NCBI GenBank assembly: GCA_020137815.1
Contig: CM035352.1
Span: forward strand, 7,192,001-7,256,000
Direction of reading: 5' to 3'
DNA length: 64,000 nt
Source of the DNA: Hormiphora californensis
Lineage: Eukaryota; Animalia; Ctenophora
How positions within the stretch are numbered: position 1 is the first letter of the stretch; every line of letters starts with the position of its first letter. The position numbers were made by a program, and so were the translations under genes. The notes below the pieces were generated by a model, which worked only from the letters and a program-made list of their open reading frames with translations, searched no databases and was not told where the DNA came from. Below are positions 6,052-32,401 of the stretch, in pieces.

Positions 6052-8167
6052 TCAGACAGTCCCCCCATTGTCAGTACTTCCATCCTCCAGCATTCCAGCC
6101 CGGGCTCGGATCTTGGCCAAAGTCTTCTTCTCCGCCTTCCTCTTCTCAGCTCCATAACTCTCATTAAACTTGCTGACACAATGACAGTCATGGGCAGAGC
6201 TAGGATCACAATCCCCAAAATAACCGCGAACCGAGCCGATCAGACGACCAACCGTCGATTTTGGAGCTAAATCGCCGTACCCGACATGTGGTGACGGTGA
6301 CTATACTCCACCAACAGCCCAGCAAGATACTCTCAAAGCCACTGTCCATTCCCAGCTCTGCATAATACATGAGGGTGCCAAAGAGCAGTACAAAGATGGC
6401 GATGAGGAGAGATAGGAGGATGAATTCCCGGGTCGCCCCCGCAATCACCTTCATCACCACGATCAACTCCTTGCTGTGTCGGATAAACCGGAATATCCGG
6501 ACCACCCTGCTCGTTCTACATATCCTCAGCACAACGAACTTATCGCTGGTCGCACTACTACTCGTCATCATGGCGATTATCTCAATGTAAAATGGGAGGA
6601 TCGCGAGGAGGTCTAGCACGTTGAGGAAGCTCTTGAAGAAGAGCCAAGGTTTAGGCCAAGGATATCAATTTTAGTGTGAAGTCTATGGTAAAGAAGCCAT
6701 TTATCAGGATCTCCAAACCGTATAACACGTAGTAAATCTTGTGTTGTTTGTCGTTGAAGTACTTTGTAGCGCTTGGTACTGACTCCGGTTACAAGGAGCA
6801 CCACAGAAAGGACAATTGCGAGCATGTCAAAGAAGGCCCAGATCATGGCGGCTTTAGAGAAGTGTGGGTCCATCAGGAAGTTGTGGAGCTTTTGCCGGAG
6901 TGTCAACTGAAATGGGAATAGTTAGGGTTAACTGAAAAGAGCGGGAATAGTTATGGTGAATCGAATTTAGGGCAAACGGCACGATTATGGCCATAATGAT
7001 ACCGTTTGTCTTTCTATGTCTTGCACTAATTATTCTGTAAACGCACTGTATTTACCTCTTCCTGTAGAGAGCATTCATCTTCTTCGAATGAGAATATCTT
7101 GGCTAGATCTACCTGAAAGGAAATTTGTTAATTTAATATGAACACAAAACAAGAGAGAGAGAGAGAGAGAGAGAGAGAGAGAGAGAGAGAGAGAGAGAGA
7201 GTGAGAGAGAGAGAGAGAGAGAGAGAGAGAGAGAGAGAGAGAGAGAGAGAGAGAGAGAGAGAGAGAGAGAGAGAGAGGAAAGAGAGGAAGAAAGAGAGAT
7301 AGATAGATAGAGAGAAAGAGGGGAAAAAGAAGGAATTGCAGCACATGTCGTATATTAGCCTGTAACACGTCATACCATTACTCATTAAAATTTGTACACA
7401 CGACTAAATGCAATAAGCTACAGTAAATAATTTGTTATGAAAACACCACATTAAATAATTTTCCCAGTGTCACAGCTTTAACCTAACCTTAACCCTATAA
7501 CCAAAGTTTTGACCCATTCGAGTGAAAACAATCCCCCATTATGTAATCTAGGAACCCTAATTCCCAAGATATTATCGACTCTAATTTGAATTCTTCAAAC
7601 AGTCAGGGTCACTACTTGTTCAAACCCCCGGGGCGTGCCGAAGTGGTGAGACCGTGAGACAGAGTCGAGCATGGCTAGGGTTCTTACCTTGAAGTATTCC
7701 AACTCCTCCTCCACTATGTCTCTGTCGATATTTGTTGGAGATCTGAAGACACCCTTGGATTGGTAGAAAAAGAGGAGGGCTGAGAAGAATCCTCTGTGAC
7801 GATCGAAATAGTAGGCGTTTAATTCTTCATTATAAAACTTCTCTATCTCCTCAGAACCGAGAAGGGTGTCAGGGAAAAACCTGCAGGAATCAGGAGTTGA
7901 AATAAACAAACAGGGTTGAACAAACAAACAAACAAAACTAGGGGACTAAACAAACAAACAAACAAACAAAACTAGGGGACTAAACAAGCAAACAAACAAA
8001 CAAACAAACAAACAAACAAACAAACAAACAAACAAACAAACCTCAAGGTGTCTGGTGTTGTTGTGAATTTCTTCCCACTAACATTGATCCTGATAAGATT
8101 GTTATCAGTGGTTCTCTTGTAGTCATGGTAACTGTCTTTGTTGCTGCACTTTACTGACAAACTGTTC
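6052..8167 (-). CDS. Shaker-family voltage-gated K+ channel alpha subunit, constant exons (T1, S1-S6)
   Basis: Exons 8167-8042 (IRINVSGKKF), 7880-7688 (FPDTLLG..YYFDRHR..FFYQS), 7112-7056, 6906-6052. LDLLAILPFY (S3), RICRTSRVVRIFRFIRHSK (S4), WWSIVTVTT-VGYGD after a 1-nt indel near 6287, LALPMTVIVSKF (S6). Several 1-2 nt frameshifts in the last exon. Confidence 0.92.
7905..8041. repeat. (CAAA)n microsatellite filling a Kv intron
   Basis: Tandem CAAA with duplicated ACTAGGGGACTAAACAA. Confidence 0.85.
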
Positions 8168-8749
8168 CTGAAGGGAGAATCAAGTGTTATTATTGGAATT
8201 AAAATTGAATTAATTAATTGATTTGAAAATTTAATTAGGTTATTGGAAATGTTATATTAGAGAACGATCAAATGACCCCCGCATAATACTAATTTCCCAT
8301 TCAAATACTAATTACTATGATCCCACATGTGATCCCATTCCATAGAGTCATATATAATCATGTTCATCGGAAATCATTAGGATTAATTTGTGGTAAATGT
8401 GGCCTACTTGATCATAGGCCGCCTATGATCAAGTAGTTGAACTATTCAACACCGGGATCTCTCTTTTCTCTTATCAAATCAGGATACACCCCTCATGGTA
8501 CTGTGTTTTTCAACCAGAAGCCATAGAGGGAATTGGAGGTGGATTGTACGTGGGTATGGTTAGGGTGGTACGTGGGTAAAGTAGTCTACCATCATTTTTG
8601 TCTGCTTCTGTGGTATTGTACAGGCAAAACCAAGGAAACCAAGGAATACTAACCGATAAGTGAATAAGTGAATAAGCAGTAAATACAAAAACAAAACAAT
8701 GGTGATATACCACGTGGATATAGAAAATAGGGTTAACTATGTTTTATAC

Positions 8750-8862
8750 CCCTTCTTGATATTCCCATTAGTGGCTCGAATGGTTGCCTTTTCACGCGGT
8801 TTATTAGTGGTTAGAGAGCTTCCAACCCAACTCTTCAGCGTGTAAAGCCACGCCCCTGACAT
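8750..8862 (-). CDS. Kv variable first exon V1 (MSGAWLYTLKSWVGSSLTTNKPREKATIRATNGNIKKG)
   Basis: ATG, 113 nt (3n+2), GG|GTATAA donor, in frame with acceptor at 8167. Confidence 0.6.
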
Positions 8863-9540
8863 GCCACAATGAAATCACTGGAACCCAGTTACAGATCCAG
8901 GAAATACCGGGTCCAATCGGTATACCAATACCCGATAATATCTTCAAAACCAGATCCGATCAAATAGAACAATACACGGACACAATACACGTGAAAAGAG
9001 ACGCGGGCTGACGCCAAACAATGAAATAATTTGAAAGCGTGGTACATTACGCGATATGGAAGTGGGAAATTTCCCTCCCTTTGTCCAAAACCACCCTCTC
9101 CTCCCTATTGTGCCTGTATTTCACCAAATTATTAATTCCCAAGACACGAAACACACGTACAGAGAGAGGTTGAAAAGGTTTGGTCTTGATACTATCTCTC
9201 TGGACTGATACATACTATCTCTCCCTGATACTATCTCTCTGCACTCCCTGATACTGCACTCCCTGATACTATCTCTCTGCACTGATACAGAGACAATGTG
9301 AGTGACAGTACTATTGGTCTAATGCGAGAGAATTCAGCTGAAACACGGCCTGGAAGACGATGTCTGAATTGATGTCTAATCAAAACGTGAGACAGTCTAG
9401 GGCCGAGTTTGCAATTAATTGGACACTGTTCCATTTTCAGGGCAAATACACCAATTCATAGTCACTTGTCCACCTTAGCACTGTATGAGAAACAGCATAC
9501 AGGGAAGCCGGAATTAGCATCACCACAAAATAGCACCTAC

Positions 9541-31852: not shown

Positions 31853-31991
31853 TTCTGAATAATGAGTTCAGAGCAAGAATTAAATAGGGAAGAAAATCGA
31901 AAAATACTGGGTTTGACCGGGACTTGAACCAGTACAGGGACCTCCAGAGAGACATGCTCGGAGCTATAAACCACTAAGCTACCAAACCCTA
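31853..31991 (-). repeat. tRNA-derived SINE-like repeat (copy 1)
   Basis: Near-identical to 39133-39327 and 39452-39648; minus strand GGGTTTGGTAGCTTAGTGG...GGTTCAA.TCCCGGTCAAACCC (A and B boxes, acceptor stem). Confidence 0.7.
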
Positions 31992-32243
31992 TCTTTCTGA
32001 GAATGATTCATTTCTGAGAATGATTCATTGATTCACTTCCCACAATCAAGGCGGTGAGTCCCCCCTCCAACAACCACTACCACCACCCAGAGTGCCCCAA
32101 CTCCCCGGCCCGAATGATAGTCAAAAACAACCCCACAACAACTTGGGCACGTCGCGCCCCCCATGTTCGCGCGCCCGTAGGGCGATCCCCTCACATAGGC
32201 CCGTACGGGACTTGCCTGCTTCGCAGGCAACACAACAACTTAC

Positions 32244-32401
32244 GTATCCCAGTCAACAGGGATGGTAATTGACGTACTCCCCAGCTCTCCGTCCTCCTCC
32301 ACAGCATGCTGATCCTGACTCTTCAGGAGGGTTTTTAGGAGCCATCGGATTAGCAACCGGGAGGAATCGAGAACACCGCCACTGCCAGGCACCCCTGACA
32401 T
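32244..32401 (-). CDS. Kv variable first exon V11 (MSGVPGSGGVLDSSRLLIRWLLKTLLKSQDQHAVEEDGELGSTSITIPVDWDT)
   Basis: ATG, 158 nt (3n+2), AC|GTAAGT donor, TTCTTTAG acceptor 14 nt upstream of the ATG. Confidence 0.7.

Follow-up and report, generated by a model that had tools for sequence, protein, structure and literature searches.

The Shaker gene of Drosophila, which encodes a voltage-gated potassium (Kv) channel, has about five 5' variants. Clustered protocadherins and UGT1A carry tandem variable first exons of one phase that are spliced to constant exons. The ERG channel gene unc-103 of Caenorhabditis elegans has about six first exons and promoters used in different cells, although our literature search gave no supporting paper for this last case. 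Here, we analyzed a stretch of 64,000 nucleotides (nt) from the ctenophore Hormiphora californensis (GenBank assembly GCA_020137815.1, contig CM035352.1, positions 7,192,001 to 7,256,000 of the forward strand; hereafter, the window, with positions counted from its first letter). It contains a Shaker-family channel gene that is preceded by an array of alternative first exons. The array is real; the count of eleven exons given in a preliminary description of the window is not proven.

Inactivation balls consist of an uncharged stretch followed by basic residues (PMC11287247), and the pore is plugged by the N-terminal peptide's non-polar end (PMC12460158). The DPP6a and DPP10a variants of auxiliary Kv4 subunits confer N-type inactivation, other variants affect targeting, and expression is region-dependent (PMC3973911). 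In C. elegans neurons, K+ channels likewise often have alternative first exons and are often differentially spliced (PMC12084653).

Ctenophores are without the Kv2-4 subfamilies, their Shakers represent a separate expansion, and how excitability is diversified in these animals is an open question (bioRxiv 2024.12.09.627618). The same work demonstrated N-type inactivation for MlShak4, MlShak5 and MlShak13 of Mnemiopsis and used the absence of the T1 zinc site as a criterion for the ctenophore Kv1-like clade. So far, ctenophore Kv diversity has been counted by gene, with one N-terminus each; the single locus described here adds 6-10 N-termini, which are partly conserved between genera.

Results

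The channel gene is located on the minus strand, and its constant part is composed of four exons: 8167-8042, which begins at a phase-2 acceptor common to all variable exons and contains no Met; 7880-7688, which encodes the T1 domain (Pfam BTB_2, E 1e-10); 7112-7056, a T1-S1 linker of 19 codons; and 6906-6052, which encodes S1-S6, the pore and the C-terminus (Ion_trans, E 9e-18). The core features of a channel are present, i.e., six helices, S4 arginines and the TVGYG filter, the last being broken in the window assembly by one additional base. The zinc site of T1 is marked by a His/Cys-Cys motif; the end of T1 in this gene is without it, and the gene groups with ctenophore Shakers in the tree described below. 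The predicted protein is a ctenophore Shaker-family channel of the Kv1-like clade. Since the constant part has no Met ahead of S1, T1 requires a coding exon further upstream. The acceptor at 8167 scores 11.2 bits, more than any other from 8.2 to 33.3 kb on the minus strand, where the runner-up has 8.0 bits. The preliminary description, which had placed one Kv channel gene downstream of the array and had noted a phase-2 acceptor at 8167 with no ATG before T1, was borne out in both respects. The upstream neighbor is a v-SNARE gene (V-SNARE_C match), presumably GOSR1-like, which ends near 33280, so the variable-exon array occupies the entire interval. Nested separate genes between 8.2 and 33 kb were considered and rejected, as this region has no second strong acceptor and no long coding frame.

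Evidence that multiple N-termini converge on this acceptor comes from other ctenophores. With the S3-S5 stretch as a query, 27 proteins were found among 594 candidates, and the best named relatives were isoforms of Bolinopsis microptera (90% identity over 124 residues). The clusters of these relatives, with 15 of 24 members listed for the main one, contain seven Bolinopsis RefSeq isoforms (XP_063675968-974), which comprise six distinct coding N-termini and one internal-Met form, and nine proteins of the Mnemiopsis locus ACHWQZ_G006517 (KAL5265877-885), which comprise seven N-termini, an internal-Met form and a truncated form; all are products of automated database annotation, not experiments. 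Every ortholog N-terminus stops one residue ahead of the constant start, which aligns with window position 8166, and in 14 of 14 cases (one Logan protein included) the junction residue is compatible with a codon whose last base is G. An acceptor at the same point as 8167 was also seen in L001, a spliced, Bolinopsis-like transcript that reaches into the intron at its 5' end, and in the Mnemiopsis-like genomic open reading frames (ORFs) P0068 and P0091. The claim that the exons feed one acceptor therefore agrees with orthologs in two genera, which have six and seven annotated N-termini at this position.

In a 23-row tree, the window gene joined a clade (99/100) that holds the Bolinopsis and Mnemiopsis genes with multiple isoforms and excludes the sister paralog; P0020, a further paralog, was placed inside this clade on a long branch and is probably misplaced. 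When compared between Bolinopsis and Mnemiopsis, the N-termini form nine classes, of which four pair 1:1 (z 4-23) and five are unpaired. Searches for additional N-terminal forms gave genomic ORFs and paralogs only, and a metagenome scan covering 20 of 64 parts gave one locus. The paralogs P0077 and P0020 have one NCBI record each, without an isoform label, and one Bolinopsis record was found for the sister paralog. Genomic ORFs of the latter (P0008, P0009, P0011, P0014, P0016, P0018 and P0019) start to resemble one another at a single point before T1, which suggests that the sister paralog may also have an intron there.

Each of the eleven islands proposed for Hormiphora starts with ATG, is open, has a length of 3n+2, ends at a GT and reads in frame into 8167, exactly as had been claimed. 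ATG-GT frames are frequent, with 553 candidates on both strands of the region. Donors were scored with a matrix derived from 29 donors chosen by eye from genes in the window; several thresholds were tried, and p values are uncorrected. Among minus-strand donors of at least 4 bits, 5 of 11 are preceded by a phase-2 ATG frame of at least 60 nt, compared with one for phase 1 and none for phase 0, and the corresponding phase-2 count on the plus strand is 1 of 20 (Fisher p 0.013). At 3 bits or more, phase-2 frames precede 8 of 24 donors on the minus strand and 2 of 33 on the plus strand (p 0.012). The donors of two proposed exons, 12067 (0.2 bits) and 8862 (0.6 bits), are weaker than every one of the 29 training donors, the lowest of which has 0.8 bits; this counts against the wording "at least 11". 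Taken by itself, the window sequence supports a core of strong exons and not the count of eleven. The variable/constant architecture is upheld by the orthologs and their common acceptor; the count probably exceeds the true number by one to three, and Hormiphora likely has 8-10 genuine variable exons.

The variable exons are 21-64 codons long and mostly cannot be aligned with one another. No DNA similarity among the variable units was found, and one duplicate pair was detected among 55 pairs tested. Thus, the likeness to clustered protocadherins that had been suggested holds for the layout, and does not extend to DNA similarity among units or to a common promoter motif, neither of which was found.

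The best supported variable exon is 18031-17928 (like all exons below, on the minus strand). It has homologs in Bolinopsis isoform X3 and Mnemiopsis KAL5265882, ranks first of the 553 candidates for both members of this class (z 5.7) with the right donor and phase, encodes a ball-like peptide and has a donor of 4.2 bits. In a tblastn search of 14 ortholog N-termini against the region, it was the only exon to stand out. In the ranking of the 553 candidates, the top one started in a listed exon for 8 of the 14, with scores that, 18031 aside, did not exceed those of control hits. Three other exons are well supported. One, with a ball-like peptide and a donor of 5.3 bits, ends at 21504 and may start at 21670 or 21619; it had been listed as 21619-21504, and the exon stands, with its start in doubt given the further in-frame ATG at 21670. 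It is the top candidate for Mnemiopsis KAL5265880, a weak match. The remaining two, 23626-23433 (ball-like) and 27728-27619 (not ball-like; donor 5.9 bits, the strongest outside repeats), are old duplicates of each other. They align gap-free over 31 residues with 11 identities (p 0.0005 among the 55 pairs, the minimum attainable with 2000 shuffles). Because seven of the 11 identical residues are encoded by different codons and third positions are identical at the chance level (7 of 31), they appear to derive from an old duplication conserved as protein. The motif common to both holds a Cys, far from the N-terminus. The end of exon 27728 (27619) also scores as an acceptor (8.0 bits) with a strong donor immediately after it, a pattern of recursive splice points in long introns.

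Five further exons are likely. Exon 9608-9541 is an island of 63% G+C with a ball-like peptide that has Tyr at residue 8, a donor of 1.5 bits and a weak likeness to Mnemiopsis P0032/P0035. Exon 11188-11061 is ball-like, has an acceptor-like site at 11290 and offers two phase-2 donors, 11100 (3.4 bits) and 11061 (1.4 bits); the choice of the latter in the preliminary description is doubtful, as 11100 scores higher and 11061 is at the edge of a 40-nt tandem repeat. Exon 26663-26599 has a donor of 4.8 bits and is not ball-like, and exon 30006-29927 encodes an uncharged Thr-rich peptide without basic residues (donor 4.3 bits). The most distal exon, 32401-32244, is ball-like (donor 3.5 bits); ahead of it lies a probable non-coding exon with its donor at 32591, and there is a weak acceptor at 32415. 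Exon 8862-8750, with a ball-like peptide, is uncertain, and 12067-11823 is probably false: it has no homology, is not ball-like and shows no clear G+C step (0.45 vs 0.42/0.39). A possible further exon, 29694-29646, has an ATG, phase 2, a good donor and one in-frame TAA, possibly a decayed exon or a base error. Another phase-2 candidate, 29572-29448, is an open A+T-rich frame of 41 codons whose donor scores 3.8 bits. At 10760-11067 (40-nt unit, 7.5 copies) and 23359-23458 (51-nt unit, two copies), tandem repeats reproduce the end of an exon together with the donor.

Ball chemistry, i.e., an uncharged start followed by basic residues, was found in 7 of the 11 window peptides and in 28 of 233 control frames (p 0.00015), a difference that counts for less given that the thresholds were set after the peptides had been looked at. 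The earlier proposal that N-termini tune gating is thus supported, with regard to N-type inactivation, by sequence chemistry only. The variable N-termini likely tune the speed of N-type inactivation, and a gating toolkit would be expected to combine ball-like and charged starts, as these peptides do. Homomer-forming Shaker subunits have the S6 gate consensus PVPVIV, and regulatory subunits typically lose P3 (PMC6279357). The gate is PMTVIV in the window, in all orthologs and in paralogs P0008, P0010, P0020 and P0077. As judged by this motif, it is a gate change typical of regulatory subunits, which had been missed previously, and the subunit may therefore act only in heteromers.

Relative to L001, six extra bases are inserted into the last constant exon, at five sites (near 6790, 6660, 6286, 6231 and 6174), without a stop; the preliminary description had missed these frameshifts. 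Short contigs of sequencing run X1, approximately 92% alike, skip the 149-nt intron downstream of exon 7112-7056, and 15 of the 15 listed differences are at third codon positions. The loose ends of X1 contigs are without the extra bases at 6660 and 6286. The v-SNARE neighbor has a similar frameshift in its last exon. Inside the array, a 100-N gap (13304-13403) is flanked by two copies of approximately 700 nt (12900-13930), one of them error-rich, and this duplicate is likely an assembly artifact. The frameshifts of the last exon are likely assembly errors, and such errors could also conceal or mimic small exons.

Acceptor-like sites upstream of the variable exons were scored with a matrix trained on cis acceptors, with 300 nt upstream listed. 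Sites of at least 3 bits within 150 nt of the ATG occur in 3 of the 11 exons, six have no site above 0 bits in this interval, and random ATGs have a higher median. Because few acceptor-like sites precede the variable exons, each likely has its own promoter. CT runs lie within 1.8 kb of 7 of the 11 exons, compared with 5.3 expected (p 0.25). Between 7152 and 31029, the gene contains 10 of the 11 long CT runs of the minus strand of the window, vs two GA runs.

Run X1, taken as RNA by guess only, contains 0.05 of the words of the window, and run X2 contains none. Except for a short unplaced X2 piece (9120-9783 bin), no contig was found on the listed variable exons, and these data give no evidence on expression. 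One X1 record is identical over 8056-8172, i.e., 5 nt past the acceptor, and continues with 32 unplaced letters and a fold-back; the 5 nt are compatible with exon ends 11061, 27619 or 29448, or with a chimera.

Several other features of the window were observed. An exact 29-nt copy of the ctenophore spliced leader is present at 55670-55698 (plus strand), with no GT donor after it, and is directly followed by a LINE-like element (55730-59500) with ORF1 and then an endonuclease domain. This arrangement likely arose by retro-copying of a trans-spliced transcript of the element, or because the element targets leader genes. A single-frame gene with MACPF and pentraxin/laminin-G domains is located at 53441-51846 (minus strand), and a single-frame gene (3472-5295, plus strand) encoding a papain-family protease with a long C-terminal extension lies immediately behind the channel gene. 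A foldback element (15686-17032) has 665-nt arms that are 99% complementary and separated by 17 nt.

Discussion

We consider it probable that this gene carries an array of 8-10 first exons with their own promoters, spliced to 8167, whose N-termini switch N-type inactivation on or off or set its speed. Transcription of each first exon would begin at its own promoter, and each donor would be spliced to 8167, as it is by annotation in the relatives and as it presumably is in Hormiphora. The chosen peptide would then tune N-type inactivation of one shared channel core, and the subunit may work only in heteromers, given its PMTVIV gate. Charged starts would yield non-inactivating or differently targeted channels, and exon choice might be made by cell type.

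A number of observations weigh against this reading. The splicing evidence is automated annotation of relatives, and no read of Hormiphora was found to connect 8167 with a variable exon. Clear cross-genus homology was detected for 1 of the 11 window exons, and its local p of 0.001 would fail alone under 154 comparisons. Conservation in relatives, which had been proposed as a check, held for 18031-17928 and was not clear for the other exons, whose best matches to ortholog N-termini (z 1-3.6) were no better than control hits. The phase-2 excess, another proposed check, was seen for strong donors and not with a generic donor matrix at weak thresholds (1/11/11 of 41 donors on the minus strand and 3/10/8 of 62 on the plus strand), and 110 of the 553 ATG-GT candidates are minus-strand phase-2 frames. 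Ball-like N-termini occur in only about four of the nine lobate classes, ball-like sequences do not always inactivate (PMC11287247), and the author of the preliminary description may have favored ball-like frames when picking exons. No promoter motif common to the exons was found, as no 6-8-mer survived testing of upstream k-mers. Finally, the last exon as assembled cannot encode a channel, and the window contains four other long frames, all intact.

These points bear on the alternative that few exons are used in Hormiphora and most of the eleven are chance ATG-GT frames, or that the gene is a recent pseudogene. The abundance of minus-strand phase-2 candidates and the five frameshifts are in its favor. 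Nevertheless, we regard it as very improbable in light of the strong-donor excess, the duplicate pair, the homology and the ball chemistry; moreover, the frameshifts all consist of extra bases, with neither a stop nor a loss among them, X1 contigs lack two of them, and the neighboring housekeeping v-SNARE gene is also frameshifted. Somewhat less remote, and still improbable, is the absence of separate promoters, in which case a long precursor would be trans-spliced to the leader, or cis-spliced from non-coding exon 32591, before each exon. At least 56% of the long reads from Hormiphora carry the spliced leader (PMC8527503), the same leader sequence occurs within the window, and acceptor-like sites precede 11188 and 21670, with weak ones ahead of 18031 and 32401; however, the scarcity of such sites in front of the other exons, with six of eleven having none and a median below random ATGs, argues against this mechanism.

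The N-termini might also serve mainly for targeting, lipid anchoring or expression level, or be neutral promoter by-products, with gating the same. KChIP variants behave in this manner (PMC3973911), several N-termini are charged from residue 2-4, the motif shared by 23626 and 27728, which holds a Cys, is distant from the N-terminus, and five of nine lobate classes are unmatched in the other genus. Such roles are unlikely to be the main ones, however, considering the enrichment of ball chemistry and the four classes conserved between genera. A tentative alternative, which refines rather than replaces the reading favored above, is that the array is real and the subunit is regulatory (silent), forming no channel alone and lending its N-terminus to heteromers with ctenophore Shakers. 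Besides the difference between PMTVIV and the PVPVIV of homomer-forming subunits, vertebrate regulatory subunits typically carry a hydroxyl residue in place of P3, and in Kv6.4 the stoichiometry is limited by T3 (PMC6279357). No homomeric current was obtained from 7 of 16 Mnemiopsis Shakers (bioRxiv 2024.12.09.627618), and the choanoflagellate SheliKvT1.1 gives N-type inactivation to heteromers (PMC11287247). On the other hand, the PMT gate is also present in the four paralogs listed above and may be a clade trait compatible with homomers.

Combining the array with a silent role, one may speculate that an ancient regulatory Shaker subunit serves as a cartridge holder, in which the exon chosen by a cell type, out of approximately ten, sets heteromer inactivation; we view this idea as possible and rather doubtful. 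If true, the gene would have the largest N-terminal cassette found on a pore-type ion-channel subunit, older than the cydippid/lobate split and a convergent equivalent of the DPP6/KChIP toolkit, and its promoters would be markers of excitable cell types. In any case, exon promoters may mark neuron and muscle types, and the locus, which naturally combines a set of unrelated peptides with one pore, could be used to test what makes an inactivation plug. It also suggests a testable reason for ctenophore Shakers that look silent or slow when a single gene model is expressed. The isoforms are present in automated NCBI annotation, and no paper noting them was found. Our literature search found no description of this array, with incomplete coverage of ctenophore Kv papers, which may mention variants; the words "splice", "exon" and "intron" do not occur in bioRxiv 2024.12.09.627618, nor does "isoform" in the available part of PMC13749725.

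The layout is known already, and the ctenophore array is an unusually large, ancient instance of it. Variable exons of protocadherins and UGT1A are large, recognizable duplicates with conserved promoter elements, whereas those of the ctenophore gene are short and mostly unalignable. The unc-103 gene belongs to the EAG family and the ctenophore gene to the Shaker family. Compared with the 5' variants of Drosophila Shaker, about five in number, 6-7 are annotated in the relatives and probably 8-10 exist in Hormiphora, and the Shaker gate has PVP where the ctenophore gene has PMT. Both are Shaker-family channels, and Shaker, too, has an N-terminal inactivation plug (PMC12460158) and regulated alternative splicing to distinct isoforms (PMC2606942). 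The Shaker plug begins AAVAG with Tyr8 (PMC12460158), and exon 9608 similarly begins with small uncharged residues and has Tyr8. MlShak4, MlShak5 and MlShak13 share family and phylum with the Hormiphora gene, and their N-type ball was shown by truncation; unlike the present locus, the MlShak genes were handled as having one N-terminus per gene (bioRxiv 2024.12.09.627618). The regulatory subunits Kv6.4, which has the same P3 to T gate change (PMC6279357), cnidarian jShal-gamma and SheliKvT1.1 would resemble it in that N-type inactivation is passed to heteromers; in the available parts of their descriptions no first-exon array is mentioned, and the silent behavior of the ctenophore subunit is putative. 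The Kv4 subunits DPP6/DPP10 and KChIP likewise use alternative first exons to place variable N-termini on a common core, with five variants for DPP6 and four for DPP10 (PMC3973911), but these are auxiliary proteins, and the ctenophore array is on a subunit of the pore-forming type.

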